A model generated the notes under the pieces. The model made no database searches, was not told the DNA's origin, and was given only the letters and a program-made list of their open reading frames with translations. From Tagaea sp. (GTDB taxonomy: Bacteria; Pseudomonadota; Alphaproteobacteria; CACIAM-22H2), in the NCBI GenBank assembly GCA_965279565.1, contig OZ257249.1, positions 2,897,116-2,961,115 on the forward strand: a DNA stretch of 64,000 nucleotides, read 5' to 3'. The translations under genes were made by a program, and so were the position numbers. This document shows, one piece after another, positions 14,363 through 64,000 of the stretch (position 1 is its first letter; each line of letters opens with the position of its first letter).

Positions 14363-14373
14363 CGTGTTCTCCG

Positions 14374-38242: not shown

Positions 38243-38282
38243 TTGACTCTCCAGTAGTGAAAAAATAGATTGGTCTTACCAA
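38243..38282 (+). promoter_or_regulatory. candidate sigma70-type promoter (TTGACT-N17-TAGATT) overlapped by a GntR-type palindrome TTGGTCTTACCAA
   Basis: Seen in the AT-rich intergenic region about 80-110 nt upstream of the binding-protein gene. TGGT-N3-ACCA matches the general GntR/FadR operator pattern. A second perfect palindrome GATTGAATTCAATC lies at 38213-38226. Confidence 0.35.
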
Positions 38283-38358
38283 CAGATGACCGGATCGTCG
38301 GCCGTCCGGTTCAACGCGATCCTGCCGGCAAAGGCGGGACGCCAGGGAGGAAATCGCG

Positions 38359-39657: not shown

Positions 39658-39680
39658 CAACAGCGGAAGATCGGACGAAC

Positions 39681-41392: not shown

Positions 41393-41414
41393 CTCGGATG
41401 GGAATTCAACGCGC

Positions 41415-42518: not shown

Positions 42519-42540
42519 AGACGGGGCGGAACCTTTCCAG

Positions 42541-43944: not shown

Positions 43945-43960
43945 GTCCGGGAACTAGGCG

Positions 43961-45352: not shown

Positions 45353-45386
45353 GCGGATCAACCGTCATAACGAAGGAGAGGGAACG

Positions 45387-46676: not shown

Positions 46677-46742
46677 CGACGACAAGCGGCGGGGCGGCCG
46701 TCGGGCCGCCCCGGTCCGCATCAACCCGAGAGGAACGAGAAC

Positions 46743-47501: not shown

Positions 47502-47511
47502 GGGCACGAAC

Positions 47512-48726: not shown

Positions 48727-48743
48727 GACAAGCAGGGGACAGG

Positions 48744-49412
48744 ATGATCGATCTCGACAAGCACGACTGGCCGTCGATCGCGGCGCGCTTCAAGCGGCTC
48801 TACACGCCGGCGGTCTGCGACGTGCTCGACGACTACGAGCTGCGCCACCAGTACGTCCACCATGGCATCCGGCCGCTCGACCGCACGCTGATGCTGGCAG
48901 GCCCCGCCTTCACGATCGTCGGCATGTCGAACTCGACGCGCGACAAGTCCAAGCGCATGGGGCCGCGCGTCATCGACAGCTTCGTGCCGCATGTCGTGGC
49001 CTGCTACGACACGATGGGCAACGAGGACACCGGCGTGTGGGGCGAGCTGTGGAGCGTGGGTGCCGCCAAGCGCGGCTGCGTGGGTGCCGTCGTCGATGGC
49101 GGCATTCGCGACACGGCCTATATCCGGCGCGCGGGCTTCCCGATGTACCATCGCCACACCGCACCGGGCGACGCGGTCGGCCGTTTCAACATCGTCGATT
49201 TCAACTGCCCGGTGTCGATCGGCGGCGTGCGCGTCAATCCGGGCGACTACGTCTTCGGCGACGAGGACGGCATCATGATCATCCCGCGCGCGATCACGAT
49301 CGAGGTGCTGGAGAGGGCGGAAACCGTCTGCGCGCGCGAGAACCGCATCCGCGACGCGATCGACGGGAACACCTCGCTCGCCGATCTCTACACGAAGTTC
49401 GGCCAGTTCTGA
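48744..49412 (+). CDS. RraA-like protein (4-hydroxy-4-methyl-2-oxoglutarate aldolase / RraA family)
   Basis: Start at the internal ATG (MIDLDKHDW...) with an AGGGGACAGG SD. RraA-like fold motifs GAVVDGGIRD and IIPR. Confidence 0.75.
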   Translation: MIDLDKHDWPSIAARFKRLYTPAVCDVLDDYELRHQYVHHGIRPLDRTLMLAGPAFTIVGMSNSTRDKSKRMGPRVIDSFVPHVVACYDTMGNEDTGVWGELWSVGAAKRGCVGAVVDGGIRDTAYIRRAGFPMYHRHTAPGDAVGRFNIVDFNCPVSIGGVRVNPGDYVFGDEDGIMIIPRAITIEVLERAETVCARENRIRDAIDGNTSLADLYTKFGQF

Positions 49413-49422
49413 GCGCCGCCGC

Positions 49423-50298
49423 ATGGCCGCCCCGAAGCGCCGAATCCTGCTGACGGGATCGCTCGGCCATCTCGGCGCGGCCGTCGCGCGTGAGCTTGCC
49501 GGGGCCGGACACGAGCTGACCTGCATCGACCGGCGCCCGCCCGACGGAAACCCGCCGGGCGCCTTCGTGCGCGACGACCTGTCGGATGTCGGGCGGCTCG
49601 CGGGCCTGATGAACGGGATGGACGCCGTCGTCCATTGCGCCGCGATCGCCAGGCTGCACGCGGCCCCCGAGGAAACGGTCTTCGCGACGAACGTCACGAC
49701 GACCGCGAACATGCTGCTTGCGGCCGAACGCGCCGGGATCGGCCGTTTCGTCTATGCGTCGAGCCAGTCGGCCCTGGGTTTCGCCTATGCGCCGCGCATC
49801 GTGCCTCCCGACCGGCTGCCGGTCGACGAGACGCATCCCTGCCGGCCGGTCGAAGGCTACGGGCTGAGCAAACGCGTGGGCGAACAGCTTTGCGAGATGG
49901 TGTCCGCGCGGTCGGCCATGACGAGCGTGGCGCTGCGCTTCCCGGTCATCTGGTCGCACGAACGTTTCGAGGCGCACACGCGCAAGCGACTCGACGATCC
50001 GGTCCAGGCAGCTAAGAGCCAATGGGCCTATGTCGACCTGCGCGACGCCGCCACTGCGTGCCGGCTTGTGTCAGAGGTAACGCTCACCCATCCTCATCGC
50101 GTATACAACATTGGCGCAAGCCGGCCATTCGAGCTTACTGATGCGGCCGTAATTCTAAGAGTTTCCTATGGCGAAGTTGATGGATTGTCGGATGTTTTAG
50201 CATCGGGTGATGCGTTGTTCGATACCACCCGGGCTAGGTTCGAACTAGGGTTCCAGGCGCAATGGTGCTGGAACAGAATGCGGGTCGAGCATGTCTAA
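49423..50298 (+). CDS. NAD-dependent epimerase/dehydratase family protein
   Basis: ILLTGSLGHLGAAVARELAGAGHEL Rossmann motif. The last ~70 codons (from about 50090) are markedly lower in GC than the rest of the gene. Confidence 0.75.
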   Translation: MAAPKRRILLTGSLGHLGAAVARELAGAGHELTCIDRRPPDGNPPGAFVRDDLSDVGRLAGLMNGMDAVVHCAAIARLHAAPEETVFATNVTTTANMLLAAERAGIGRFVYASSQSALGFAYAPRIVPPDRLPVDETHPCRPVEGYGLSKRVGEQLCEMVSARSAMTSVALRFPVIWSHERFEAHTRKRLDDPVQAAKSQWAYVDLRDAATACRLVSEVTLTHPHRVYNIGASRPFELTDAAVILRVSYGEVDGLSDVLASGDALFDTTRARFELGFQAQWCWNRMRVEHV

Positions 50299-50367
50299 CT
50301 GTTCGCACTTCATTGTCGGCCAAGTTGCTGAGGAGGTCGGGGACCAGAATGCCAATTTTCGTAACCT

Positions 50368-50490
50368 CGGTTCCTTGATTTCCACTCAGTTCGTTCAAAT
50401 GCGAGAAACGGTAGAAATGCCGTTGAAATCACTGAATAATTATCAGTTTTGAGGGCTGGGGGCGTAGATTCGGATCCTGTCGCTCCGACC
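50368..50490 (+). repeat. repeat family copy F (most diverged, AT-rich): GGTTCCTTGATTTCCACTC...CGTTGAAATCACTGAATAATTATCAG...GGCTGGGGGCGTAGATTCGGATCCTGTCGCTCCGACCA
   Basis: Same modular order as copies A-D and the same acceptor-like end CGCTCCGACCA, but a degraded T-arm and no clear downstream hairpin. Confidence 0.6.
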
Positions 50491-50852
50491 AAACAAACAG
50501 GCCAGCCGGTCACAGGATCGACTGGCGTTGTTCGTTCTGCCTTGCGCTACTGCGGGGTCGGCTCATCCCGCACGATCAAGTTCATCGATCGCGACGCGCA
50601 AGCTCGGCATTGCGTCCCTGCGCGAGCCAGTCGGAGACGGGCCGGTTGTGGTGATCGATGCGCGCCATTCGATCTGGAGCCGCATCTTCGTGAACATGCT
50701 GTAGCCCGTCAGGGCAAGGAACGCCGTCGCCAGTGCGGCGAAAGGGCCGAAACCTTTTTTCTCTGACCTGCATGCACAGAACTCGTTGATCAGAGATCTG
50801 ATCGACGGGCTTTTCGAGAAAATTGCATTGCCGTACTCAAAATTCGGAAGGC

Positions 50853-52328
50853 TCACGGCTTCCGTGATCTCCATTCCCGCCAGAACGGCCAGACGAAACA
50901 TGCGGCCGCGACAAGTAGCAGGCCAAGCGATCCCGGGCGGGTCACGAGTGGCCACATCGAGCCGTCGGATATCATGAGTGCCGACCGAAGTTTCGCTTCC
51001 GCCATCGGTGCCAGGACGAAGCCGATCACGAACGGGGCAAGTGGGAAGCGTGCGAATTCCATCGCCAATCCGACCAGTCCGAACAGAAGCATGATCCAGA
51101 CGTCGGAGACCTGCCCATCGACGGCGAACGCTCCGACAATGCAGAACACGACAACGGTCGGGAACAGAATCGCGCGAGGTACGAGCATTAGCCTGGCGAA
51201 GAGAAGCACGCCTGCCGTCATCAGCACGTACATCGCGACATGCGCGACAAGGTGCGTCGCCATGATCGTGTTGACGATTTCGGGATTCGTCGAGAACAGC
51301 AGCGGGCCGGGCCGCAGGTTGTGCATGACGAGGGCCGCCAGCAGGATCGCGTCGGCGATCCCGCCGGGAATTCCCAGTGCTAGGAGCGGGATAAGCGAGC
51401 CGCCGGTCGTCGCGTTGTTGGCGCTCTCCGCCGCGACGATCGCCTCCTCGCTGCCCGTGCCGAACGCCTCCGGGGTCTTCGACACGTTCTTCGCGACCGT
51501 GTAGGCGACGATCGACGACACTGCCGAGCCTACGCCTGGGTGGATCCCGATCCACACGCCGATCAGCGAAGAACGCAGCATGTTCCAGCCATGCACGACA
51601 TAATCGCTGAGCCGGAGAAAGACGCCACGCATCGACGCGCGGACATGATCGTTGCCTTGTTCGATGTGCATCGTGTCGGCGACGAGCTGCGACATCGCGA
51701 ACAGGCCGATGACGACGGGCAAAAGCTGGAATCCGTTGGTCAGCGCTTCGACGCCGAATGTCAGACGTACGATGCCGGAAGTCTGGTCTACGCCCGGCAT
51801 CGCGACGAGGACGCCGAGCAATGCCGAAATCATACCTTTGAGGAACGAACCGCGGCTGAGGGAGGAAACGAGCACGAGCGCGGTGAGCACGAGTGCGAAA
51901 TTCTCCCAAGGCCCCAGCAATACGGCGAGATCGGCCACAGGGCGCGTCAGCAACACAAGGAAGAGCCAGCCCACGAATCCGCCGACGATCGAACCGGCAT
52001 TTCCGAGGCCCAGTGCCCGCCCGGGAAATCCCTTTTTGGCGAGCGGATAGCCGTCGAGCGTCGTCATCACCGCATTCGGCTCGCCGGGGATGCGCATCAG
52101 TGTCGCAGTGACAAGACCACCCGAGATACCGCCCACGAACATCGAGATCAACAGCACGATCGCATTGGTCGGCGACATCGAGTAGGTGAACGGCAGCGTG
52201 AGCGCCATCAACATGCCAGCCGTGATACCCGGCATGACGCCGACGGCGATGCCGATCGTCACGCCCGTCATCATGATGAGGAAGGGGAGGGGCGTTGCTA
52301 GATTGAAGAAAGCGTCCGCAAGCGTCAT
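50853..52328 (-). CDS. tctA: TctA-family tripartite tricarboxylate transporter large permease
   Basis: 491 aa from the internal ATG (MTLADAFFNLATPLPFLIMMTGVTIGIAVGVMPGITAG...). The listed 658-aa ORF has an Arg-rich spurious N-terminus. Confidence 0.9.
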   Translation of the reverse strand: MTLADAFFNLATPLPFLIMMTGVTIGIAVGVMPGITAGMLMALTLPFTYSMSPTNAIVLLISMFVGGISGGLVTATLMRIPGEPNAVMTTLDGYPLAKKGFPGRALGLGNAGSIVGGFVGWLFLVLLTRPVADLAVLLGPWENFALVLTALVLVSSLSRGSFLKGMISALLGVLVAMPGVDQTSGIVRLTFGVEALTNGFQLLPVVIGLFAMSQLVADTMHIEQGNDHVRASMRGVFLRLSDYVVHGWNMLRSSLIGVWIGIHPGVGSAVSSIVAYTVAKNVSKTPEAFGTGSEEAIVAAESANNATTGGSLIPLLALGIPGGIADAILLAALVMHNLRPGPLLFSTNPEIVNTIMATHLVAHVAMYVLMTAGVLLFARLMLVPRAILFPTVVVFCIVGAFAVDGQVSDVWIMLLFGLVGLAMEFARFPLAPFVIGFVLAPMAEAKLRSALMISDGSMWPLVTRPGSLGLLLVAAACFVWPFWREWRSRKP

Positions 52329-52837
52329 GGCAGGGCCACCAGCAGGATCTTGCGGAAGACGTGCTCGATCGCCGCTGTCGCAGTCAGAGCCACGCCGATA
52401 ACCCAATAGATGAGCGGCCGGCGCATGCGTGCCATCGCAAGTCCGAGGATTGCAAGGAACACGAATGTCGACAGGAAGAAGGGGACGTTGAGCCAGATCG
52501 CGGCGACATAGGCGGCTGTTGCCGCGAATGCAAATGCCGCAAGCCCGGGGCGCAGCGGATAACCGGCATCTCCGGCCGAAGCATCCAGCCCGCCAATCAG
52601 CGACTGCGTCGCCTGACCGATATGCAGCCCCAGCAGTGCTCGCACGAGAAGTGCGAAGCCCAACGCGAGCAGGGCAAGCGCCGCCGCCATCGGAACGGCG
52701 CCGGGACCGAGCGGATCGTAGACCGCAGGCGGCTCGCGCCAGCCGGCGACGAAGGCGACGCCGCCGACGACGATTACGACCGACGCGGCGAGCGCATCGT
52801 TCCGGTGTTCGCCCTCGGGCGGCTTCCAACTTGCCAA
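52325..52837 (-). CDS. tctB: TctB-family small permease
   Basis: 170 aa with 4-5 TM segments. ATGA overlap with tctA. Confidence 0.7.
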   Translation of the reverse strand: MASWKPPEGEHRNDALAASVVIVVGGVAFVAGWREPPAVYDPLGPGAVPMAAALALLALGFALLVRALLGLHIGQATQSLIGGLDASAGDAGYPLRPGLAAFAFAATAAYVAAIWLNVPFFLSTFVFLAILGLAMARMRRPLIYWVIGVALTATAAIEHVFRKILLVALP

Positions 52838-52847
52838 GCGCCGTGCC

Positions 52848-53798
52848 CTAACGTGCCGGTGCTGCGGTCTTGGCGACAGGCTCGATCATCTTGAAAACGT
52901 CATCGAGCCGCTTGGCGAAGGCAGGCCCGCGCATGAACTGCCCGGTCTGCGCCTGTTTCTGGAAGAACTCCTTCATGTCGGGCGAGCCGTTCGCCTTCTC
53001 CAGCGCATCGGCCATGCCTTCGATCGCCTCGCGAGAAGTTCCCTTGGGGGCGAACCAGAAATTCTCGGCACAGTAGTCGAATCCAAGGCCGAGTTCGCGT
53101 GCGGTCGGGATTCCCGGTTCGAGCGAAAGCCGCTCAGGCCCCGAATAGGCGAGTGCGCGAATGCCGTTCGCCTTGTAGGTCTGGTACTCCGAGCTCGACA
53201 GGACGGTGACCTGCGTGTGCCCGCCCATGATCGCCGCGAAATTCTCGCCGCCACCGCCGATCTGCGCGTAGCGGAACTTGGCGCCGGGGAACCCCTGTTC
53301 CATGAACAGCGCCATCATGTGGTTGAGCGCACCGATATTCACGCCGGCGACGATCGTGTTGGGCTGTGCCTTCGTCGCGTCCAGTAGGTCCTTGAGGGTC
53401 GTGAACTTCGAATCGCCCCGGACGATCGGGTGGAAGCAGAAGCCACCGGTCAGCGCGACGGGTTCGAAATTGCGATAGGAGACGCCGCGCGCGGGATCGA
53501 CGACTTCTCCCGACAGAAGGGCGAGATGGATGGCAAGAAACGTGTGGCCGTCGGGCTGGGCCGTCATGACCTGGCGCGCGCCGACCGAGAAGTGACCGCC
53601 CACATTCTGGATCGCGACTGGCTGGGAGACGATCTTGCGCTCGTCCAGCACCTTCTGGAGCGTGCGGGCGAGGATGTCGGTCGTGCCACCGGGCCCGAAC
53701 GGCACGACGATGCGGATGGGCTTTTCCGGCCAAGCCGCCATCGCAGGCACGACGGATGCAAAAACGGCGACGATCGCGGCGGCGATTCGGAGCAGCAT
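52848..53798 (-). CDS. tctC: TctC/Bug-family periplasmic binding protein
   Basis: Start trimmed to MLLRIAAAIVAVFASVVPAMA (signal peptide). Bug-family motifs KPIRIVVPFGPGGTTD. Confidence 0.85.
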   Translation of the reverse strand: MLLRIAAAIVAVFASVVPAMAAWPEKPIRIVVPFGPGGTTDILARTLQKVLDERKIVSQPVAIQNVGGHFSVGARQVMTAQPDGHTFLAIHLALLSGEVVDPARGVSYRNFEPVALTGGFCFHPIVRGDSKFTTLKDLLDATKAQPNTIVAGVNIGALNHMMALFMEQGFPGAKFRYAQIGGGGENFAAIMGGHTQVTVLSSSEYQTYKANGIRALAYSGPERLSLEPGIPTARELGLGFDYCAENFWFAPKGTSREAIEGMADALEKANGSPDMKEFFQKQAQTGQFMRGPAFAKRLDDVFKMIEPVAKTAAPAR

Positions 53799-53854
53799 CG
53801 GACTTCCTCCCCTTGTGACTTTGATTGCGAGTATTGGATTTTGGCGGCAGGCGG

Positions 53855-55264
53855 TCAAGCAAGCCTCGATACGCGGCCGATCGCATCAAGCTTGGCGTCG
53901 GCGAGATATCCGTACCTGTTGACCCAGATCCGGCCTCCGGATGCGTTCCAGGCGACCCGGCAGCGCTCCTCGAAATCGGCGACCGGCCCGTACCCGTGTG
54001 CCAGCGCATAGACGGGAACGCGGCCGGCCGCGCGGCGTGCCGTTTCAATCTTCGCTGCTTGCGCCCTTTCTCCGACTGGATGCGCTTCGTCGGGTTCGGG
54101 GTATCGCCAGTCTTCCAGCCGTGCCGGTCCTGGGCCGTCCCCTATTCCGAAGAGCCGTGCGATGCCGCGACCCAGATTGGGATTGCCTGCCAGAGAAGGG
54201 TTCGCAGCGGCGATCGTGTCGGCCCAGGCGCGCACCATCATCGGCCAGTGCATGGTGTAGAGCTTGACAGACACGCCATTACACATGCCGTCGAGCGACC
54301 CGAAGTCAAACCCGCTAAGTTGTGTCCATGGCGGCGGAAATGAATTTGGCACAAGCTTGATGTGGCCGGCACCGGCATCGTCGAGCGCGTCGCGGAAGGT
54401 CCGGATGATCTCGCCGGACAGCACCGACTTGAATCGTAGCCATGCCGCCAGCGCCGGCGTGCCGCCGAAGAGTGCTTCAACCGACGTCCGCCCCGCGGCC
54501 CAGTCGGCGAGATACTTGGGTACGAGACCGCCCAGAAGGCGCGCGCGCAGGTCCGCCGCGGCGGCTCGCATGACGGGGAAGTCGAAATCGAGCCTCTGCG
54601 CAGCCGCTTCAGCGTGCGAGCCGAAATCGAAGAAGGCGCCCTCGAGTGAGTAGGGGGGGTACTCCGGCCAGTCGACGCGCAATCCATCGATTTCGGGATA
54701 GGCGCGTACGAGATCCCGGACAAGTGCGCGCGCATAGGCGCGAACATGCGGGCTTGCGAGCGAGGCATTGTTGTCGACGCGGACAGTCGGCGACGTGCCG
54801 TCCGGCAGGCGTGGTCGGTCGTCCTCTTCCGGGCCGCCGAACTGCACGCGGTAACCGGGCGGGATGGCCGCCTGTATCTGGAGATAGACCTCGAGGCCGC
54901 GTGCCTTTGCGGCCCGGATGCTGTCCGCAATGACGCGTCCCTGTGAGATCGTGAGTTCATCGGCGACCGCAGGGCGATATCGCAAGCCGTCGTAGAGCGT
55001 TGCGTCCGGCACGAAGCTTGGCGACGTTCGCACGAATAGTTCGCGGCGACCCCAGAGAGGGCGGTCCAAAAGACGGACCTTGCCTGCACCGGCATCGGCG
55101 GGCGGCTCGCGCGATCCTGTTCCGTCTTGTGCAGGTGCCATGACGTAGGGCGACGTCGCGATCGCGGTAATGTCGGCTCGATTCACAAGATTGTCGAGTG
55201 CCGCTTCGACCCCCTCGTTCTGGAAGAACTCCGGAAAGATCGTGATTCCGACGAATCTCGTCAT
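53855..55264 (-). CDS. conserved hypothetical protein (469 aa, possibly TIM-barrel hydrolase-like)
   Basis: Start at MTRFVGITIFPEFFQ with an AAGGAG SD. No confident family assignment by eye. ATGA overlap with the sulfatase gene. Confidence 0.45.
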   Translation of the reverse strand: MTRFVGITIFPEFFQNEGVEAALDNLVNRADITAIATSPYVMAPAQDGTGSREPPADAGAGKVRLLDRPLWGRRELFVRTSPSFVPDATLYDGLRYRPAVADELTISQGRVIADSIRAAKARGLEVYLQIQAAIPPGYRVQFGGPEEDDRPRLPDGTSPTVRVDNNASLASPHVRAYARALVRDLVRAYPEIDGLRVDWPEYPPYSLEGAFFDFGSHAEAAAQRLDFDFPVMRAAAADLRARLLGGLVPKYLADWAAGRTSVEALFGGTPALAAWLRFKSVLSGEIIRTFRDALDDAGAGHIKLVPNSFPPPWTQLSGFDFGSLDGMCNGVSVKLYTMHWPMMVRAWADTIAAANPSLAGNPNLGRGIARLFGIGDGPGPARLEDWRYPEPDEAHPVGERAQAAKIETARRAAGRVPVYALAHGYGPVADFEERCRVAWNASGGRIWVNRYGYLADAKLDAIGRVSRLA

Positions 55265-56748
55265 GCCTGCTCCTTGTCCAACCTGTTCTGTTCGGGGCGC
55301 AGGTCCCAGCGGTGCTGGTCGATCGGCCTGATGCCGCGCGCCCACGCGCCGATGACGTCCTTGTCAGCACGGCGCGCGCGCATGCGCGCGTCGATGGCGA
55401 GGGGATCCCAGTCGGCAAGCAGGCGCCGTTCGAGATCCTCTCGGATACCTCTATGTGTCGCGCTATCGGCCAGATCCGTCATCTCGTCGGGATCGGATGT
55501 CAGGTCGAATAGTTGCGGTCGGTGGCCGTAGTAGTAGACGAGCTTCCAGCCGTCTTTCCGGATCATGCGCTGGCGCACAGCATCACCACCAGTCCAGGCA
55601 GGAATCGAGTCCGTGCAATACTCCGAATAGGTCTCGTCGAGCCATGTCGCTTCCGGATCGCGCGCCACGTCGAGAAAGCTCCGGCCCTGTCCGTTCGGAA
55701 GCGGTTTGCAACCCGTCGCGGCGAGTATCGTCGCGGTTGCGTCGATCAGATTGACCACGTGCCGCCGTCGCTGGCCCACTGGAAGACCGTCTGGCCAGCG
55801 AAGAATGAGCGGAACTTTTACAGACTCCTCGTAGAATGTGTGCTTCCACCACAATCCGCGCTCGCCCAATTGGTCTCCGTGGTCGGAGCTGTAGACGACA
55901 AGTGTGTCGTCGGCGAGACCAAGCTGCTCGAGCCGATCGAGGATCCGGCCGATCAGCAGATCGAGACGCGTCACGAGGCCGTAGTAGGCGGTACGGGCGC
56001 GCAGTTCGTTCGCCGGATCGGCATCGACGATGCCACGGTCTTTGCGCCACCAGGCCAGCCAGGGATGCTCGTTTGGCGGTACGGGCAGGCGTGCCGGCGG
56101 AACCTTGCCTTCGTAGGGGAGGTAGTCTTCCCGCCAGGCAACGTACGGTGGATGCGGCAGGATGAAGCCGACGCTCAGGCAGAATGGGGTGTCGTCTCCG
56201 TTTCGTCGACGGACGCCGATCGCATCGAGTTCGTCTAGTGCCGCAGCCGTCGCGTCTATGTCCTTCAGTTGATAGGCGCTTTGCCCGATACCGGAAGCGG
56301 TCAGGCTCTCGCGAAACGGATCGTTGGCGTTCTCGAGAACGCCCATTCCGTGACGCGCCACGCCGGCCCAGTTCGGGCTATGGTCGCCGACCGTGCGCTC
56401 GGCAAATCCATGCATCTGGTCCGGCCCCATCGCGTGCAGGCGGCCGACCAGGAAGGGTCTATAGCCACCGGCCCCCATCGCGTGCGGCCATGTCGCCCTG
56501 TCCGAGGCGAGGAAATCATCGTTTGTCCAGCAGTCCTGCGCCGAAGGATAGCGCGCGGTCAACATCGACATGCGGCTGGGCACGCAGATCGGCGACGGGC
56601 AGTAGGCGTTGTCAAACGTCACGCCACCCGCCGCGAGGCGGTCGAGGGCGGGCGTGCGTGCGACCGGATCTCCGTAGCAGCCTGCAACAGATCTGGCGTG
56701 CTGATCCGAAAACAGGAAGAGCAGATTCGGGCGTTTCGCTGATATCAT
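55261..56748 (-). CDS. sulfatase (formylglycine-dependent arylsulfatase family)
   Basis: 495 aa with sulfatase signature C-V-P-S-R (CPSPICVPSRMSMLTARYP), LLFLFSDQH, and GKW-type C-terminal motifs. Confidence 0.85.
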   Translation of the reverse strand: MISAKRPNLLFLFSDQHARSVAGCYGDPVARTPALDRLAAGGVTFDNAYCPSPICVPSRMSMLTARYPSAQDCWTNDDFLASDRATWPHAMGAGGYRPFLVGRLHAMGPDQMHGFAERTVGDHSPNWAGVARHGMGVLENANDPFRESLTASGIGQSAYQLKDIDATAAALDELDAIGVRRRNGDDTPFCLSVGFILPHPPYVAWREDYLPYEGKVPPARLPVPPNEHPWLAWWRKDRGIVDADPANELRARTAYYGLVTRLDLLIGRILDRLEQLGLADDTLVVYSSDHGDQLGERGLWWKHTFYEESVKVPLILRWPDGLPVGQRRRHVVNLIDATATILAATGCKPLPNGQGRSFLDVARDPEATWLDETYSEYCTDSIPAWTGGDAVRQRMIRKDGWKLVYYYGHRPQLFDLTSDPDEMTDLADSATHRGIREDLERRLLADWDPLAIDARMRARRADKDVIGAWARGIRPIDQHRWDLRPEQNRLDKEQA

Positions 56749-57863
56749 CGACGGACGGCCGATCCGAGAGAAGTCAGATACGAAATGTTGAGCGAGATAC
56801 CGAGGCCGGCGGAATTCGGGATCTTCCCTTTTCCCGATCGTGGTTTCGACAGGCTGCCAGCTACCATCGCGAAGAACGCCGGACTTTCATCATACTGGTG
56901 CTCGAGGATCGTGAAGCCCGGTAGTCCTGCGCAAAGATGCAGACTCGCGACATGCGAGACGGGTCCGGTTGGATTGTGTGGCGCGACCTGCACGCCTCTT
57001 CGGGCGGCGTAGGCGGCGATCCTGCGAAACTCGGAAAGCCCTCCGGCGTACTTAACGTCGGGCATCAGGACGTCGTAGAGATTGCTGTCGACATAGGGCC
57101 GGAAGCTCTCGAGACCGGTTCCCGTCTCGCATCCGGCCAGCAACGCGCCGGCGGAATTCGCATGCGCCTTCAGTCTGCTCAATGCGGAATAGGACGCTGG
57201 GATCTCCGGAATCGGGCATTCGAACCAATCGAGGCCGAACGCCGCAAGCGCGTCGATTGCCCGGCGCGCGCCGGCTTCGTCGAACCGCCAGTGACAATCG
57301 ACGTAGAGCTTCCGAGACGGTCCGATCTCGTCGCGTACGGCTCTTGCACGCGCGACGCCTGCAGCGATCTCCGGCGGACTGCCGGGAATCACCTCGTCGA
57401 ACGGGGCGATCTTGATCGTATCGTATCCGTCCGAGACGGCCTTTCGGGCGCTCGCCGCGAAGGATCCGGGACTTCGATCGACCGTTCTCCGATTGATGTT
57501 CGCATAGATCGCGGCCTCGGTCCGTTCGGCGTTGCCGAGCAACGCGTGGAGTGGAGTATCTGCACGTCGCGCGGCTATATCCCAAAGCGCCTGGTCGATC
57601 GCGCTGACGATAGCCGCACCATGTCGGTCGCTATGCGAAATGCCGGCGGCAGCAAGCGGATAGTCGACGGGAAATGCGGGGTGGCCGATCATGGCGCTGC
57701 CGATCCGCGCGGCGGCCAGTGACAGCTCCGATTCCTGACCGGCGAGCGTGGCTTCGCCCCATCCTTCGATTCCGTCGCTATCGGCTACGCGCAGGAATAC
57801 CCAGATTGTCTTCGGACTGATGGTGGCGGCGAACGCGTCAACGTTCCGGATCGACGCGCTCAT
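56745..57863 (-). CDS. enolase-superfamily enzyme (mandelate racemase / galactonate-dehydratase-like)
   Basis: 372 aa from the internal ATG (MSASIRNVDAF...) with a GAGGAA SD. MR_MLE motifs (KIAPFD, DCHWRF, ECP). ATGA overlap with the sulfatase start. Confidence 0.8.
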   Translation of the reverse strand: MSASIRNVDAFAATISPKTIWVFLRVADSDGIEGWGEATLAGQESELSLAAARIGSAMIGHPAFPVDYPLAAAGISHSDRHGAAIVSAIDQALWDIAARRADTPLHALLGNAERTEAAIYANINRRTVDRSPGSFAASARKAVSDGYDTIKIAPFDEVIPGSPPEIAAGVARARAVRDEIGPSRKLYVDCHWRFDEAGARRAIDALAAFGLDWFECPIPEIPASYSALSRLKAHANSAGALLAGCETGTGLESFRPYVDSNLYDVLMPDVKYAGGLSEFRRIAAYAARRGVQVAPHNPTGPVSHVASLHLCAGLPGFTILEHQYDESPAFFAMVAGSLSKPRSGKGKIPNSAGLGISLNISYLTSLGSAVRR

Positions 57864-58013
57864 TCGTGGTTCCTCGTCGTGGATGGGCCGATGTTCCACC
57901 AGATCGCATCGGCTCTCGTTCGAAAACAATGGCACACGACGCCCGGTGCGAGTCAATAATCGTCCTGACGCGATGCGCGCCGGTCCGCGACGTCGACGTC
58001 GCGGGAGGACGGC

Positions 58014-59186
58014 ATGGTGATTCCTGGATCGACGACGTTCATGGGGTTTCTTCGGGCAGACGGTTCTGTCGGTACGCGCAACCATGTCCTCGTCGTTTCG
58101 ATACTCGGACTTACGAACCGGATTGCCGACCGGATCGCACAATGCGTACCAGGCACGCTTCCGGTGACGACTCCTTACGGACGAGGACACTACGGTGCCG
58201 ACAAGACCCTCCATCGTGATCAGTTGATCGGCCTGTGCCTCAACCCGAACGTTGCCGGCGTGCTGGTTGTTGGTGCGGACAGGAAGATGGTCGACGACAT
58301 CGCTGCGGCTGCTGCCCGCGGTGGGCGGCCTGTCCGGAGCGTCGCGCTCGACGACACGCATGAGGATGCGCTCGATACGACGGCTCGCGGCATCCGGGCC
58401 GCAGGGGAACTCGTCCACGCCGCATCGCGGATGCGACGTTCGGAGCGACCGGCTTCTGCCCTGTTTCTTGGCGTCGAATGCGGCCACTCCGACGCGACGT
58501 CAGGCATCGTCGCGAATCCGGTCGCGGGCAACTGCGTGGACAGGATCGTCGATGCCGGCGGCACGGCCGTCGTCGGCGAAACCGTCGAATGGCTCGGGGC
58601 TGAACACATCGTCGCCAAGCGCGCCGCGAATGTCGCAGTTGGAGATGCGATCATCGCAGCGGTGCTGCGCCGGGAAACCGAAATATCGGCAGGTGGTCAT
58701 GACCTGACCGGCAACAACCCGGGTGCGGAGAACATTCGCGGCGGCCTGTCCTCGATCGAGGAAAAGTCGCTCGGTGCAATCGCGAAGACCGGCACCAAGC
58801 CAATCCAAGGCGTCCTTCAGGTTGCCGAACGGCCGACCCGGAACGGTCTCCATCTGATGGACGGGCCAAGCTTTTCCCCGGAATCTCTGACCGGGTTCGC
58901 CGCGTCCGGCGCGCAGCTCATGCTGTTCACGACCGGGGCAGGGAACAGTTTCTGCAATTCTATCGCCCCGACAGTGAAGCTGTCTGGGCGGCCCGATACA
59001 GTTGTGCGGCTAAAGGATCAGATAGATTTCGACGCCAGTCCAGTCTTCGAGGGTCGCGAGGATATCGCGACCGCGGGTGGCCGGCTTTTCCAGCTGGTAT
59101 TGGAGATCGCTTCCGGTGCCGCGACCTGGGGCGAAGTCCACGGCGAGGGTGCCGAAGCGATCTATCGCGCGAACGGTTCGATGTAG
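58014..59186 (+). CDS. UxaA-family (altronate/galactarate dehydratase) C-terminal catalytic-domain protein
   Basis: 390 aa with UxaA-type Cys/His-rich motifs (VECGHSDATSGIVANPVAGNCVDRIV, FTTGAGNSF). Confidence 0.7.
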   Translation: MVIPGSTTFMGFLRADGSVGTRNHVLVVSILGLTNRIADRIAQCVPGTLPVTTPYGRGHYGADKTLHRDQLIGLCLNPNVAGVLVVGADRKMVDDIAAAAARGGRPVRSVALDDTHEDALDTTARGIRAAGELVHAASRMRRSERPASALFLGVECGHSDATSGIVANPVAGNCVDRIVDAGGTAVVGETVEWLGAEHIVAKRAANVAVGDAIIAAVLRRETEISAGGHDLTGNNPGAENIRGGLSSIEEKSLGAIAKTGTKPIQGVLQVAERPTRNGLHLMDGPSFSPESLTGFAASGAQLMLFTTGAGNSFCNSIAPTVKLSGRPDTVVRLKDQIDFDASPVFEGREDIATAGGRLFQLVLEIASGAATWGEVHGEGAEAIYRANGSM

Positions 59187-59191
59187 GGGAA

Positions 59192-59518
59192 ATGAACGGA
59201 ATGGCCGGTCGATCAAGTTGGAACGCCATAGCTGTCGATCCGCGCGATAACGTCGCTATTCTGCTGCGCGATGTTGCCGCCGGCGACGAGGTTCAAATTC
59301 GTAGTGGTACGGCAAACGAACGGTTGGTCGCGGTGGAAGCCGTACCGCTCGGTCACAAGATTGCGCGCCGTGCGATCAGGAATGGGGAGCATGTGCTAAA
59401 GTACGGCGATGTCATTGCCAATGCGCGGATGGAGATTTCCGTCGGGCAGCATGTGCACGTGCACAATGTCGTCAGCAATCGTGCAAAAGTTCGACAACCT
59501 GATCACACCAAACCGTGA
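59192..59518 (+). CDS. SAF-domain protein (UxaA N-terminal-domain-like small subunit)
   Basis: 108 aa (AIAVDPRDNVAILLRDVAAGDEV...LGHKIARRAIRNGEHVLKYGDVIANA), typical of the SAF domain preceding UxaA dehydratases. Here it is encoded after the catalytic domain. Confidence 0.65.
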   Translation: MNGMAGRSSWNAIAVDPRDNVAILLRDVAAGDEVQIRSGTANERLVAVEAVPLGHKIARRAIRNGEHVLKYGDVIANARMEISVGQHVHVHNVVSNRAKVRQPDHTKP

Positions 59519-60492
59519 TGGTCAGCTGATTTTCCGGACGGCCGCATGGCCTTCAACGCCGTCGAACTCCGGGGCGCCGGGAAACGTTCCGCACAGACCT
59601 TGCGAAGTTCGCCAAGTAGTCGTCTGCAGGCCGGCGATAGCACACCGCTCCGGCGCAGCGTGAGGCCAACCGGTCGGTCCCAGTCGAGCCAGCCGATACC
59701 CGCCGGCACCACTCCGGCACACTCGCGGCCCGGCTCCATGGTGACCGAGGGCAGGAAGCCGAGGCAGTCGGTTTCAAGGATCATCGCCCGCATGAATGCG
59801 AGCGCATTCGTCTCGACTGCAAGGCGCGGTGCTGTCAGGCCGTGCGAATTCAGTGCGATCTCGAGATGCTGTCGAGTCACGATGGTGGTGGCAGGCAGCA
59901 CCCAGCGATAACGTTCGATCTCCTTTTTCGGCGGATTTCGAAGTTCGAGTAGCGGATGCCCTGGACGGCAGGCGACGACGACGCGGTCGACGAACAGGGT
60001 TTCCTGCACGAGATCGGATTCGTCAGGCTGTTCGACCAGATTGGAAATCACGACATCGATTTCGCCGGCGCGCAGCCATTCGAACAGCCGGTCATGCAGG
60101 CCGCCGATTACCGTGAGCTTCAGGTCGTTGCGCCCCTTCAGCAGGCGTGCGGTGGCGATCGGTAGAACGCTGGCGATGACACTGGGAGCCGAACCGATGA
60201 CGATGCGGCCTTCGCGGCCTTCGCGGATCGCTCCAACGGCGCGCTCTGCTTCGCTGACCTCGACCGCAATTGTGCGAGCGTGCTGTGCGAACTCGCGCCC
60301 GAACTCGGTCGCGAGAACACCGCGCGGCGTTCGTTCGAACAGCTTTACGCCCAGATAAGCTTCGAGACGGCGCAGACTCTTGCTGAGAGCGGGCTGCGAG
60401 ATGCCTAGCGACTTGGCGGCGCGGACGAGACTGCGGTGTTCGACAAGGGCGACCACGTGACGGAGCTGCTGGAGTTGCATAGGTATATCCAA
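59503..60492 (-). CDS. LysR-family transcriptional regulator
   Basis: N-terminal HTH LQQLRHVVALVEHRSLVRAAKSLGISQPALSKSLRRLE plus a LysR substrate-binding domain. Start may be the Met at codon 5. Confidence 0.85.
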   Translation of the reverse strand: MDIPMQLQQLRHVVALVEHRSLVRAAKSLGISQPALSKSLRRLEAYLGVKLFERTPRGVLATEFGREFAQHARTIAVEVSEAERAVGAIREGREGRIVIGSAPSVIASVLPIATARLLKGRNDLKLTVIGGLHDRLFEWLRAGEIDVVISNLVEQPDESDLVQETLFVDRVVVACRPGHPLLELRNPPKKEIERYRWVLPATTIVTRQHLEIALNSHGLTAPRLAVETNALAFMRAMILETDCLGFLPSVTMEPGRECAGVVPAGIGWLDWDRPVGLTLRRSGVLSPACRRLLGELRKVCAERFPAPRSSTALKAMRPSGKSADHHGLV

Positions 60493-60646
60493 GTGTTATG
60501 GATTGGAGACCAGATGGTAGTTGTTCCATTCTCGTGGAAGTGTCAAGTTTTTGGACATTCCGGACCGCAGCGGCATAACGCGCGGCCGGCGGAGGAGGTG
60601 CGAGTTTGTTCATCCAATCCTACCAGAGCGTTGGAATTTCCACTCC

Positions 60647-61147
60647 GTGAGCGAGCCGGAGGAATCCCCTCGGATTGCGAAGTCTGATGCCGCCTTCGCC
60701 GTGTCGATGATCGCCGTCGCTTTGCTGACGATGTGGGGCCTGCGCAACCAGCCCAAAGCGCCCTACGATCCCGTCGGTGCGGCTGCGATCCCTTTCTGGA
60801 CGGCGACGGTCGTCCTGGCACTGGCCGTCGTGCTTCTTGCGCGTGTGCTAATGCGTCATTCGACGCGCGGGAACTCGATCCAACTCTTCACGTCGTCCGA
60901 CGCCATCGACGACAGCTACGCAGTTTCTTTCAGGCTTTCATTCTACGCGGCAGGACTTTCAGTTCTCTATGCCGTGACGATCCCGCTGCTTGGATTCATG
61001 ACAGCATCGGTTACCTACATGATCCTTGCCGGCTGGGTACTCGGTGATCGGACGCCGCGCGCACTTGCGACCGTGACGGTAATCGCGATCGCGGGTGGCG
61101 TGGGACTCGATCTTGGGTTTCGCGCGCTTCTCATCGATCTTCCATAG
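60647..61147 (+). CDS. tctB: TctB-family small permease (start uncertain: GTG 60647 or ATG 60707)
   Basis: Hydrophobic, about 150 aa (MIAVALLTMWGLRNQ...), immediately upstream of a tctA paralog. The N-terminal part of the listed ORF is unlikely to be coding. Confidence 0.5.
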   Translation: MSEPEESPRIAKSDAAFAVSMIAVALLTMWGLRNQPKAPYDPVGAAAIPFWTATVVLALAVVLLARVLMRHSTRGNSIQLFTSSDAIDDSYAVSFRLSFYAAGLSVLYAVTIPLLGFMTASVTYMILAGWVLGDRTPRALATVTVIAIAGGVGLDLGFRALLIDLP

Positions 61148-61156
61148 AGGCGCGCG

Positions 61157-62647
61157 ATGGATCTGCTTCAGGGCTTCCTTCACTTGCTCACGCCCGGGCC
61201 GCTTTCCCTGCTAATGATCGGCACGCTTCTCGGCATCGTCGTCGGCGCATTGCCGGGTCTTACGGGTGGCGCGCTGCTTGCGTTGTCGCTGCCATTTACC
61301 TACCGGATGAGCAGCGTCGATGGCGTCATCCTGATGACATCGATGTATGTTGGGGGGATTTCCGGCGGCCTCATCACGGCGACACTGATGCGGATTCCTG
61401 GCGAACCGGCGTCCGTCGTCACGACGCTCGACGGGTTTCCGATGGCGCGCGGCGGCCGTCCAGGACGGGCTCTCGGACTTGGCATATCGGCGTCCTTGAT
61501 CGGAGGCGCGCTGTCTTGGATTGCCTTGGTCACGTTGTCACCGATGATGGCGCGTCTGGCCCTTGTTTTCGGCCCGTTCGAGAACTTCGCGCTCGTGCTG
61601 ATGGCGTTGGTGCTCATCGCGGCACTTAGTCAGGGATCAGTCATCAAGGGTTTGCTCTCTGGCCTGTTCGGAATGCTCGTTTCTTTCCCGGGTATCGACG
61701 AGACGTCGGGACAGAAGCGGCTTACATTCGGATTCGAGAGCCTCGACGCGGGCTTCAGCAGCCTTGCCGTGATTCTCGGGATTTTCGCGATCAGTCAGGT
61801 GCTCGCGGACGCCATGCATGCTCGCCAGCGATTCGAACGCCTGGATCCCAGCATCAAGGGGATATTTCTATCGCCGGCCGACTATGCTCGGCAGGCATGG
61901 AACATCGTCCGATCCGCTGTAATCGGCATTTGGATTGGGATTCTACCCGGTGTCGGAGCAAGCATCAGTTCGATTGTCGCCTATTCGACGGCGAAGAATA
62001 TGTCGAAGACTCCGGAAAAGTTCGGAACAGGTTTCGAGGACGGCATCGTCGCATCCGAAACAGCGAACAACGCGAACACGGGCGGCGCGCTGATTCCGAT
62101 GATCACTCTCGGTATTCCCGGCAGCCCTGCCGCATCGATTCTGCTGGCAGGACTGCTAATGCACAATATCCAGCCCGGTCCGACTCTCTTCACAAACTCG
62201 CCGGACGTCGTCAATGCGTTGATGGCAACCCATCTTGCTGCCCATGTCGTGATGTTCATCATGATGGTTGCCGGTTGCATGATGATCGCGCGGTTGATGT
62301 ACGTGCAGCGGGCCTACATCCTGCCGATTATCCTCGTCCTGTGTGTGATTGGCGGGCTCGCCGAGAACGGCCGAATGTTCGACGTCTGGACGATGATCGG
62401 TTTCGGTCTCGTCGGCTTCGCGCTTGAAATGGTCGGCGCCCCGCTCGGACCATTCGTCATAGGTCTGATTCTGGCGCCGCTTGCGGAAGGACAGCTGCGG
62501 GCCGGACTGATGGCCTCGAACGGTTCGCTCCAGCCACTATTCGAGCGGCCGATCACCCTTTTCTTCCTGATCGTCTCCGCGCTCATGTTCATCTGGCCGA
62601 TCTGGCGCGACTGGTACCGCAAGCGGCGAATCGTCGCCGCGGCTTGA
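61157..62647 (+). CDS. tctA: TctA-family large permease (second paralog)
   Basis: 496 aa. Collinear with the 50853..52328 TctA (shared blocks GGISGGL.TATLMRIPGEP, NNA.TGG.LIP...LGIPG). Confidence 0.9.
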   Translation: MDLLQGFLHLLTPGPLSLLMIGTLLGIVVGALPGLTGGALLALSLPFTYRMSSVDGVILMTSMYVGGISGGLITATLMRIPGEPASVVTTLDGFPMARGGRPGRALGLGISASLIGGALSWIALVTLSPMMARLALVFGPFENFALVLMALVLIAALSQGSVIKGLLSGLFGMLVSFPGIDETSGQKRLTFGFESLDAGFSSLAVILGIFAISQVLADAMHARQRFERLDPSIKGIFLSPADYARQAWNIVRSAVIGIWIGILPGVGASISSIVAYSTAKNMSKTPEKFGTGFEDGIVASETANNANTGGALIPMITLGIPGSPAASILLAGLLMHNIQPGPTLFTNSPDVVNALMATHLAAHVVMFIMMVAGCMMIARLMYVQRAYILPIILVLCVIGGLAENGRMFDVWTMIGFGLVGFALEMVGAPLGPFVIGLILAPLAEGQLRAGLMASNGSLQPLFERPITLFFLIVSALMFIWPIWRDWYRKRRIVAAA

Positions 62648-62670
62648 ATCCCGTACACGGAGGACATCCC

Positions 62671-63615
62671 ATGCGTCGCAGAGAGTTCGTCGCCGGCACT
62701 TTAGCCGCAACATTGGCCACACCAGTGCTTGCGCAATCCTATCCGGATAAGCCGATCCGCATTGTCGTTCCGAACCCGCCAGGCGGCAGCGCAGACTATA
62801 TCGCGCGCTTTTTCCAGTCGCCGCTGCAGCGTGTGCTCGGACAGCCTTTGGCTGTTGCGAACGTGGTCGGGGCCGGTACCGCCGTCGGCAACCGGCAGGT
62901 GCGAGATTCGGCGCCCGACGGGCACACCGTTCTGGCTGTTCATCAGGCGCTGCTAACGGCGGCAACTCTGAAGGTGATGGACTTTGGCCCCGAAGCGTTT
63001 GCGCAGGTGGCACAGGTTGCCACCGAGTACGTCGCCGTCATCGTCAATCGCAAGGCACCCTATCAGGATCTGCCGTCGTTTCTTGCAGCAGCAAAGAGTG
63101 GCGAACTGAAGGCGGGCGTCCAGATCGGTGCCATCAATCACTTCCTTTTCCTGTCGTTGGGCGACGCGACGGGTGTCAAGTTCCGCTACGTCAATACCGG
63201 CGGCGGCGGCCCAACGCGCACGGCACTGGCTGGCGGCCATGTCGACTGCGCATTCTTGACGGTGAACGAAGCGAAGCCGCTGGTCGACTCCGGCGACCTC
63301 ACGATCGCTGGCATCTTTGCACCCCAGCGTCTCCCGAGTTGGCCGAATCTCAAGACGGCGCGCGAGCAGGGAACCAACCTGCTGCTCAACCTGAATTACT
63401 GGTGGTGGATGCCCAAGGCAACGCCCCGCGACCGGGTCGACCGCTTTGCCGAAGCGCTGCGTGCGTCGATGTCCGACAGCGAGGTTGTCCAGAAATTTGC
63501 CGAGTTCAACATGAGCCCGGCCTTCCTGAAGGGGCCGGAACTGGAAGCCGAGATTGCCCGGCAATACGAGGGAATGAAGAAGCTCGCTGAGCGCAACAAC
63601 GTCACGGCGGGTTGA
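62671..63615 (+). CDS. tctC: TctC/Bug-family periplasmic binding protein (second paralog)
   Basis: Start at MRRREFVAGTLAATLATPVLA with an ACGGAGGA SD. KPIRIVVPNPPGGSAD motif. Confidence 0.85.
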   Translation: MRRREFVAGTLAATLATPVLAQSYPDKPIRIVVPNPPGGSADYIARFFQSPLQRVLGQPLAVANVVGAGTAVGNRQVRDSAPDGHTVLAVHQALLTAATLKVMDFGPEAFAQVAQVATEYVAVIVNRKAPYQDLPSFLAAAKSGELKAGVQIGAINHFLFLSLGDATGVKFRYVNTGGGGPTRTALAGGHVDCAFLTVNEAKPLVDSGDLTIAGIFAPQRLPSWPNLKTAREQGTNLLLNLNYWWWMPKATPRDRVDRFAEALRASMSDSEVVQKFAEFNMSPAFLKGPELEAEIARQYEGMKKLAERNNVTAG

Positions 63616-63644
63616 CGGGAAAAGAAAAGAGCAGGGAGAATCAA

Positions 63645-64000
63645 ATGACAGACAAAGGTCCTGGCCGCCGCGATGTCTTCGCCGGTGCGGCCGCACTGGG
63701 AGCGCTCGGGACGATTTCCTGGGTTCCCCAGACACGTGCCCAGACGCCGAAGGCGGCGCCGTTCACGATCGTCATCAATAACTCGCCGTGGTTCGACGGC
63801 TTCCGTGGAGCCGTCGAGGCTTACGAGAAGGAGTCGGGCAACAAGGTAAATCTCGACGTCAATCCGTTTGGAGGCAGCCTCGAGAAGCAACGGGCGTCAG
63901 TGCGCGCGCGCGATGGCCTGTTCGATCTCCTGATCATGAACGGCCTTTATTATCAGGAGATGTACCATGGTGGTTTCCTGACACCGATCAACGACATCGA
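63645..64000 (+). CDS. ABC substrate-binding protein, 5' partial (runs off the window end)
   Basis: MTDKGPGRRDVFAGAAALGALGTISWVPQTRA (Tat/Sec-like signal) with a GGGAGAA SD. Truncated by the window end. Confidence 0.6.
   Translation, partial: MTDKGPGRRDVFAGAAALGALGTISWVPQTRAQTPKAAPFTIVINNSPWFDGFRGAVEAYEKESGNKVNLDVNPFGGSLEKQRASVRARDGLFDLLIMNGLYYQEMYHGGFLTPINDI

Follow-up and report, generated by a model that had tools for sequence, protein, structure and literature searches.

Gene content and operon structure of the cluster

Within a 64,000-nucleotide stretch of Tagaea sp. contig OZ257249.1 (the window), we analysed the gene cluster at positions 50853-63615, which encodes a sulfatase, a 469-residue protein of an unnamed family (the 469-aa protein), two kinds of acid-sugar dehydratase, two tripartite tricarboxylate transporters (TTTs; Tct proteins) and a LysR-type regulator (Table 1). 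Gene content was established by listing and translating open reading frames (ORFs) and then scanning the window proteins against Pfam and NCBIfam. Each gene named in an earlier note on this DNA, drawn from the letters and their ORFs, was recovered where that note had placed it. We interpret the region as an oxidative sugar-acid catabolic cluster that contains a cytoplasmic sulfatase and, as its partner, an unnamed protein predicted to be glycoside-hydrolase-like. Comparison with 160 related loci, 80 of them seeded on the 469-aa protein and 80 metagenome loci seeded on the sulfatase, revealed recurrence of the same families, by which a functional linkage of sulfatase, acid-sugar dehydratase and TTT is well supported.

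On the minus strand, transcription runs from the enolase-superfamily gene through the sulfatase gene, the 469-aa gene, tctC and tctB to tctA, and these genes therefore constitute a six-gene operon with the transporter genes last, although the earlier note had put tctC-tctB-tctA at its head. Inspection of the sequence confirmed the two ATGA overlaps described in that note: the TGA stop of the enolase gene overlaps the ATG of the sulfatase gene in cgtcgATGAtatc (56748-56745), and the sulfatase stop overlaps the start of the 469-aa gene in caggcATGAcgag (55264-55261). Further downstream, tctC 1 most likely starts at the ATG at 53798, 56 nt past the stop codon of the 469-aa gene and preceded by the strong putative ribosome-binding site GGGGAGGAAG, and tctB 1 and tctA 1 overlap by 4 nt. 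A hairpin with a T-run was located at 50864-50845, just 3′ of the tctA 1 stop; such sites occur at chance frequency regionally. Scans of the region for promoters and terminators gave hits at chance level, and an Rfam scan gave no match. A 150-bp spacer parts the enolase operon from the divergent uxaL gene, and the start of TctB 2 is probably internal to its ORF, near 60650.

Table 1 Features of the cluster at positions 50853-63615 of the window
Feature	Positions	Strand	Evidence
TctA 1, large membrane subunit, 491 aa, last in operon	50853-52328	-	PF01970, 446 bits
TctB 1, small membrane subunit	52325-52837	-	PF07331
TctC 1, periplasmic binding protein, 316 aa, signal peptide	52848-53798	-	PF03401
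469-aa protein, unnamed family, predicted GH-like (beta/alpha)8 barrel	53855-55264	-	no Pfam/NCBIfam match
Cys-type (formylglycine) S1 sulfatase, 495 aa	55261-56748	-	PF00884 + PF16347
Enolase-superfamily (MR/MLE) acid-sugar dehydratase, 372 aa, first gene of operon	56745-57863	-	PF02746 + PF13378
UxaL, large (catalytic) part of split UxaA/GarD-family dehydratase, 390 aa	58014-59186	+	PF04295 + PF20629
SAF-domain small part of split UxaA/GarD-family dehydratase, 108 aa	59192-59518	+	PF08666
LysR-type regulator, 325 aa	59503-60480	-	PF00126 + PF03466
Perfect palindrome ATCCA-N7-TGGAT in lysR/tctB2 spacer, candidate LysR box	60487-60503		putative function
TctB 2, small membrane subunit	60521-61147	+	PF07331 over residues 59-204
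TctA 2, large membrane subunit	61157-62647	+	PF01970, 449 bits
TctC 2, periplasmic binding protein, Tat-like signal RRREF	62671-63615	+	PF03401, 104 bits

Recurrence of the gene set in related loci

To quantify co-location, we used the independently seeded sulfatase loci and counted partners for the 16 close orthologues that had enough flanking DNA. An enolase-superfamily gene accompanied 14 of these 16, the 469-aa gene 12 and both TctA and TctC 11, and the split UxaA pair (UxaL plus SAF protein) was present in four. The 469-aa family is rare, with only 351 matching stretches in one genome each of 185,579 species, yet it stands beside 12 of the 16 sulfatases, so the co-location cannot be accidental. 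The coupling of a sulfatase to an acid-sugar dehydratase proposed in the earlier note is thereby borne out, since the genes overlap in the window and the pairing, along with Tct transporters, recurs in many independent loci. The UxaA pair, which that note had also counted as part of the cluster, is indeed present, and proved to be an accessory component only.

A second set of counts came from the loci seeded on the 469-aa protein, for which one genome per species was taken and ORFs were labelled using the window proteins. Among the 52 such loci with at least 4 kb on each side, a sulfatase was found within 4 kb in 19 and adjacent in 12, and Tct genes were found in 12-13. In Alphaproteobacteria, the string of sulfatase gene, 469-aa gene and tctCBA recurs with orthologous sulfatases (630-1030 bits), and orthologues of TctC 1 come after the 469-aa gene in about 13 loci. 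Full synteny with the window was observed only in a Rhodospirillales metagenome-assembled genome (MAG; locus L005), and Tagaea MAGs were the closest relatives. One Tagaea locus also encodes a DUF4432 protein and a distant sulfatase (245 bits) at L004:1319-2809 and L004:3-1322, about 7 kb from its 469-aa gene. De novo clustering of 469-aa gene neighbours in Acidobacteriota and Planctomycetota revealed no conserved partner beyond sulfatases, in high-GC DNA with shadow ORFs.

The larger arrays combine these families in different ways. A single strand of L065 carries 13 genes in all: uxaL, a hydroxyacid dehydrogenase gene, the SAF gene, an aldo-keto reductase gene, a CUT1-type sugar ABC transporter and an SGL lactonase gene, followed by the sulfatase gene, the 469-aa gene and tctCBA. 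In L110, L118 and L096, tctCBA is accompanied by a divergent 469-aa gene and enolase gene and then by GntR, sulfatase and NMT1/SsuA-type ABC transporter genes, and L110 encodes further on an aldo-keto reductase, an amidohydrolase-type lactonase and another enolase. The marine arrays L161 and L163, of 12-13 genes each, contain tctCBA, a second sulfatase gene, a gene for a LarA-family protein, a BetC-like sulfatase gene, an enolase gene, the SAF and uxaL genes (small gene first), larC and larB, and end with a second enolase gene orthologous to that of the window. A 469-aa relative follows this second enolase gene in L163; the L161 locus sequence ends there.

The marine protein encoded between the two sulfatases, 433-439 aa long and without a Pfam match, is a LarA homologue (L161:5688-7007, L163:5691-6992 and L134:643-1941; also in L117, L125, L129, L133 and L166). 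Its score of 438 bits exceeds the cutoff (400) of the NCBIfam equivalog 'nickel pincer cofactor-dependent isomerase, group 22', a LarA group that appears to be uncharacterised and that these loci tie to sulfatases. Halovulum sp. GXIMD14794, Oceaniglobus trochenteri and Rhodobacteraceae bacterium 2CG4 also carry a homologue of this group 22 protein. LarA enzymes racemise or epimerise 2-hydroxy acids (PMC11770544), chemistry that points to hydroxy-acid, that is sugar-acid, intermediates. The same paper on the LarA superfamily mentions neither sulfatases nor group 22. No LarA, LarB or LarC is encoded in the 64-kb window.

Predicted properties of the encoded proteins

The sulfatase matched PF00884 at 145 bits, in addition to PF16347, and its intact maturation motif, C55-V-P-S-R, identifies it as a member of the S1 family; both metal motifs, S14-D-Q-H and S288-D-H-G-D, are present, and there is no signal peptide. 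The only solved structures similar across its full length are choline-O-sulfatases (6fny, E 4e-53). Its best NCBIfam match was the choline-sulfatase equivalog TIGR03417, at 273 bits against a cutoff of 433, and the PehA phosphoric/sulfuric ester hydrolase model also scored. A homologue of the formylglycine-generating enzyme (FGE) was not found within the 64-kb window. Such an enzyme is encoded in the related loci L161, L041, L126, L128, L130, L140 and L144, and in L161 its gene (13597-14460; PF03781, 222 bits) lies inside the related operon.

The 469-aa protein had no match in Pfam (E up to 0.01) or NCBIfam, and its sequence did not place it in a glycoside hydrolase (GH) family. Likewise, a profile of its family gave no match to any PDB sequence at E up to 10, and tblastn against 72,556 plasmids (PLSDB) gave none. 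The family itself is large, with more than 1500 homologues, each labelled 'hypothetical' and none with a Pfam domain, and identity holds at 52-60% across Alphaproteobacteria, Acidobacteriota (Bryobacterales), Planctomycetota and one Saprospiraceae genome. An alignment of 36 sequences revealed about 100 invariant positions, among them D198-W-P-E201 and many basic residues; R52, R64, R68, R139, K279, K334, R434 and R450 are conserved basic positions. The AlphaFold2 model (pLDDT 91, pTM 0.91) predicts a (beta/alpha)8 barrel, the fold that a GH-like protein would have, with a large helical insert at residues 208-296, and the nearest solved structures are PgaB (GH153), Cwp19 and GH42. Furthermore, the profile matched 626 clusters among 1.8 billion representative proteins; of ten remote members, one (P0351) reaches the GH42 Pfam threshold, and others match GHL6, GHL10, GH129 or DUF4015 weakly. 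On this modelling evidence, we take the 469-aa protein to represent an unnamed family with a predicted glycoside-hydrolase-like barrel. The invariant D198-W-P-E201 follows strand 194-198, and strand 331-335 offers K334, H339 and W340 and no carboxylate (read from the alignment and the model, without coordinates). The earlier note had left this protein as a bystander; it turned out to be the sulfatase's most faithful partner apart from the dehydratase, with a predicted GH-like TIM barrel. The genome records that carry the family are nearly all MAGs, and among the named protein-search matches Alsobacter sp. R-9 is the only carrier not labelled as one.

Next to the sulfatase gene, the enolase-superfamily gene encodes a protein with both Pfam domains of the acid-sugar dehydratases and the residue set D189-x-H191, E215, E246, D269 and H296, which places it with the DgoD-like members of the superfamily. 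These residues are kept in the window protein and its 12 orthologues (in at least 92% of the 13 sequences), and we take them for the metal ligands and acid/base residues characteristic of the galactonate dehydratase subgroup. The best NCBIfam match, galactonate dehydratase (NF010624), reached 151 bits, under the cutoff of 311, and the nearest structures, 2qq6, 3dip and 4jn7, have no assigned function.

The divergent dehydratase comprises the SAF, second and C-terminal domains of the UxaA/GarD family, distributed over two polypeptides. UxaL aligned to positions 105-493 of the galactarate dehydratase model TIGR03248 (175 bits) and the SAF part to positions 3-78 (37.5 bits), so the genes stand in a permuted order compared with the domains of the single-chain enzyme; being split and scoring under the cutoff of 731 bits, the protein was not assigned to that equivalog. 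The earlier note had suggested looking for this permuted, split arrangement in homologous clusters, and it does recur there: in the UxaL subfamily of the window (at least 439 bits), the large gene came first in 8/8 loci with a same-strand SAF gene, sometimes with a dehydrogenase gene between the two, whereas in the more distant subfamily of the marine loci the small gene came first in 7/7. The large-first order is therefore a stable family trait, not a local rearrangement. GarD (6u7l) is the only PDB relative of UxaL, and the JGI annotation of UxaL homologues is 'altronate dehydratase large subunit'. Compared with plasmid proteins, UxaL is 30-41% identical to annotated relatives (maximum 41.5%), and no plasmid homologue is annotated as a sulfo-lyase. 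Elsewhere, UxaL homologues adjoin MR_MLE, SDR, lactonase, LacI regulator and transporter genes, with a sulfatase at the array edge. A 20-nt perfect palindrome, CCGCGACGTC/GACGTCGCGG, lies at 57985-58004, 10 nt upstream of the uxaL start and overlapping the ribosome-binding region; it may serve as a regulator site or form a hairpin that blocks translation.

Both transporter sets contain all three TTT components (PF01970, PF07331 and PF03401). The regulator, whose best NCBIfam match, PcaQ, was under its cutoff, has both LysR domains and is divergent from tctB 2. Between the two lies the candidate box ATCCAAGTGTTATGGAT, beside the lysR start codon, which is the sole zero-mismatch copy in the 64-kb window; relaxed matches to the palindrome occur at chance level there (25 observed, 19 expected). 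The lysR gene also adjoins the second tct set in L004, L005 and L101. Because the sole box lies in the lysR/tctB2 spacer and the adjacency is conserved, control of the second tct set is the economical reading, and LysR most likely controls this divergent operon, judging from the sequence. Control of the enzyme operon is possible. The earlier note had placed the whole cluster under the LysR regulator, a description of position only: no second LysR box was found in the enolase/uxaL spacer, ahead of the enzyme operon.

With regard to the surroundings, GC content at third codon positions (GC3) is 0.68-0.80 in most cluster genes, as against 0.85-0.93 in most genes at 36-49 kb, where the upstream genes were delimited by GC3-based calling. 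A 555-bp spacer (50299-50852) with a GC content of about 0.56 parts the cluster from these genes. The low GC3 and the low-GC spacer are consistent with cassette acquisition and suggest that the cluster arrived as an acquired cassette. Upstream, at 37327-50298, lies a second sugar-acid-type cluster encoding a GntR/FCD regulator, two ABC sugar-binding proteins, two PF12831 FAD oxidoreductases, one SDR, a glucarate-dehydratase-like enolase enzyme (431 aa, 47431-48726), an RraA-like aldolase (48723-49412) and an NAD epimerase/dehydratase-family protein (49423-50298). At the other end, an ORF that starts at the tctC 2 stop and runs off the window (63612-63998) encodes the N-terminal part of an ABC-type sugar-binding protein (PF01547), and the catabolic region therefore extends past the window.

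Proposed function, alternatives and relation to known systems

We tentatively propose, at somewhat less than an even chance, that the cluster represents one instance of a catabolic gene set, widespread but so far uncharacterised, whose substrate is a small anionic carbohydrate bearing sulfate; candidates are a sulfated sugar or sugar acid and a short glycoside of either. Judging from family membership, periplasmic TctC would bind the compound and TctBA would import it. The cytoplasmic formylglycine-type sulfatase, given its family, its CxPxR and metal motifs and its missing signal peptide, would then remove the sulfate ester, and the TIM-barrel protein, whose fold and co-location are the pointers here, might cleave a glycosidic or similar bond in the same molecule. 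Next, as families and catalytic residues suggest, the enolase enzyme, the UxaA pair or both would convert an aldonic or uronic acid into a 2-keto-3-deoxy acid. The product would be finished by enzymes encoded elsewhere, possibly in the neighbouring cluster with the SDR and the RraA-like aldolase. Relatives add genes that fit a sulfated sugar or sugar-acid route, among them those for FGE, a gluconolactonase-type lactonase, an aldo-keto reductase, a hydroxyacid dehydrogenase and the LarA-family 2-hydroxyacid epimerase. The earlier note had proposed catabolism of a sulfated carboxylic sugar. The recurrent linkage of sulfatase, dehydratase and Tct genes speaks for that proposal, with a uronate or aldonate as one possible substrate class. 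Literature searches turned up no paper linking the sulfatase, 469-aa, dehydratase and TTT families, and no orthologous cluster characterised for a non-sulfated substrate. Two candidates from these searches were set aside: the ulvan 'oligosaccharide dehydratase' P29_PDnc, which is PL37-like and unrelated to UxaA or MR_MLE, and a SAR11 TTT paper, which was unrelated as a precedent. By sequence comparison, no enzyme of the cluster is an orthologue of a characterised enzyme. We regard the sulfated-sugar reading as plausible but unproven; the identity of the substrate, the 469-aa protein's role and the mode of regulation are inferred.

Several observations weigh against this proposal. The cluster encodes neither FGE nor a kinase or an aldolase, none of these protein subfamilies has a characterised member, the substrates known for TTTs are carboxylates and not sugars, and the 469-aa protein has no obvious second carboxylate at the clan GH-A nucleophile strand (again read without coordinates). 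The Tagaea loci L004, L006 and L007, with 469-aa proteins 78-86% identical to that of the window, keep the 469-aa gene and tctCBA with no adjacent sulfatase; in L004 (86%), lysR, the 469-aa gene and tctCBA stand in succession with no sulfatase, enolase or UxaA gene between them. L101, in turn, keeps lysR, the enolase gene, the sulfatase gene and tctCBA without the 469-aa and UxaA genes, and the parts can therefore work independently. Among Acidobacteriota and Planctomycetota loci, the 469-aa gene mostly occurs by itself, and its surroundings are not conserved. Moreover, of the two enolase subfamilies found overall, the sulfatase-adjacent gene in most loci belongs to the one that is not the window's. 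This separability, the change of enolase subfamily among loci, the second sugar-acid cluster directly upstream and a GC3 below that of the neighbours, which suggests acquired cassettes, all favour a mosaic of independent modules in place of one pathway. Adjacency would then reflect catabolic cassettes shuffled in a sugar-acid island: the sulfatase, with or without the 469-aa protein, would serve sulfur scavenging or act on an unrelated ester, and the enolase enzyme and UxaA pair would dehydrate non-sulfated sugar acids (galactarate, altronate or galactonate analogues) imported by Tct. We judge such a mosaic unlikely, given that stop-start overlaps bind the enolase, sulfatase and 469-aa genes, that an enolase-superfamily gene accompanies nearly all close sulfatase orthologues and that the same families re-associate in distant lineages in other orders and subfamilies, as in L065, L161 and L163, which is the signature of functional, not accidental, linkage.

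SuyAB is a two-subunit UxaA-family enzyme, and a TTT system for sulfolactate is known. By analogy, the cluster might instead process an organosulfonate, with the enolase enzyme resembling the sulfogalactonate dehydratase SfcF (MDP0926277), the UxaA pair acting as a SuyAB-like sulfo-lyase that releases sulfite, Tct serving, like SlcHFG, to import sulfolactate or a sulfosugar acid and LysR taking the part of SuyR. Sulfofucose breakdown in Paracoccus wurundjeri does combine SuyAB with an MR_MLE dehydratase, an SGL lactonase and an SDR dehydrogenase (PMC12421959), and some related loci carry ABC transporters with NMT1/SsuA-like binding proteins. A sulfatase translationally coupled within the operon would nevertheless be useless on a C-S bond, and relatives co-encode FGE. 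A sulfite exporter, SlcC/ComC and an HpcH-type aldolase are missing from the window and the annotated related loci. The UxaL homologues bear the altronate dehydratase label at JGI, and none on plasmids is annotated as a sulfo-lyase. In addition, suyA-suyB places the small subunit gene before the large one, the opposite of the order in the window. Because the sulfatase and FGE are added, the aldolase, SlcC/ComC and the exporter are missing and the subunit order is opposite, we treat this as a minor rival and consider it highly improbable. The expectations for SuyAB gene order and neighbours used here were partly taken from PMC12421959.

An even slimmer chance is given to the idea that the sulfatase acts on alkyl sulfates of the choline-O-sulfate type or is a promiscuous hydrolase of phosphonate/phosphate esters from the alkaline phosphatase superfamily, with the 469-aa protein as a non-hydrolytic binding or accessory protein. 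It draws on the choline sulfatases being the only full-length solved relatives and the best NCBIfam match, on the PehA score and on the catalytic residues of the 469-aa protein, which could not be assigned. The choline-sulfatase score, however, is far under its cutoff, betaine and choline genes are absent from the vicinity, where sugar-acid enzymes and transporters are encoded in all loci, and the roughly 100 invariant positions of the 469-aa family across phyla, many of them charged, are typical of an enzyme.

A more far-reaching version of the sulfated-carbohydrate proposal, which we hold to be doubtful, is that the 469-aa protein founds a new GH-like family and shares with a BetC-like cytoplasmic sulfatase the processing of a widespread small molecule, a sulfated glycoside or sugar acid, that dedicated TTTs import, and that the enolase-type enzyme, the split UxaA enzyme or both act on sulfated 2-hydroxy acids, possibly eliminating sulfate in the way that SuyAB eliminates sulfite. 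The result would be a sulfate-ester counterpart of the sulfosugar pathways, with a nickel-pincer (LarA group 22) epimerase step added in the marine relatives. Much of the organic sulfur in soils and waters is present as sulfate esters. What is understood of their breakdown comes mainly from polysaccharide utilisation loci, whose sulfatases are secreted; the use of small sulfated sugars by a cytoplasmic, TTT-fed route in Alphaproteobacteria would differ from that mode. Such a route would also supply a first ligand class for two of the many orphan TctC proteins, a function for a protein family of more than 1500 members that no database names, and a setting for a LarA group that is uncharacterised. 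With its six to eight enzymes, the cluster is compact and testable, and there are cultured carriers among its relatives.

Component by component, the cluster resembles known systems and departs from each of them. The sulfatase shares with the choline-O-sulfatase BetC (6fny) its fold, catalytic motif, cytoplasmic location, presumed small-molecule substrate and full-length alignment; in contrast, it falls below the equivalog cutoff, no bet genes lie near it and its neighbours encode sugar-acid dehydratases and a TIM-barrel protein. Relative to the barrels of the PgaB/BpsB C-terminal domain (GH153), Cwp19 (GHL10) and GH42/GH164, the 469-aa protein differs in matching no Pfam, NCBIfam or PDB entry at the sequence level, in its large helical insert and, as read without coordinates, in showing no identifiable catalytic pair, and it is cytoplasmic and partnered by a sulfatase and TTTs. 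The enolase enzyme has both Pfam domains of the D-galactonate dehydratase DgoD and, in the order expected, its catalytic and metal-binding residues (D-x-H, E, E, D and H), yet reaches less than half of the DgoD-type cutoff (151 versus 311 bits). SAF, second and C-terminal catalytic domains are common to GarD/UxaA (6u7l), the two-subunit 'altronate dehydratase' and the window enzyme, which is set apart by being split, with the SAF gene after the catalytic gene, and by its 30-41% identity to annotated relatives. Like the TctCBA citrate transporter and other TTTs, the cluster has all three components, here twice, and TctC proteins with signal peptides, whereas its second set is ordered B-A-C and TctC 1 orthologues travel with the 469-aa gene.

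The nearest analogue that we found among characterised systems is, by analogy of parts, the sulfofucose Entner-Doudoroff pathway of Paracoccus wurundjeri, which consists of a dehydrogenase, an SGL lactonase, an MR_MLE (PF13378/PF02746) sulfogalactonate dehydratase and an aldolase and acts with the two-subunit UxaA-family sulfo-lyase SuyAB (PMC12421959). Both systems are alphaproteobacterial and combine a galactonate-dehydratase-type enolase enzyme with a two-subunit UxaA-family enzyme, and the SGL lactonase and dehydrogenase have counterparts in the related loci L065, L084 and L085. The Paracoccus system, however, cleaves a C-S bond and has no sulfatase, whereas the window set adds a sulfatase and its relatives FGE; the ABC importer, HpcH aldolase and SlcC/ComC of the former are all missing from the window cluster. 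From SuyAB itself, the split dehydratase, encoded large part first, is distinguished by its gene order and neighbours.

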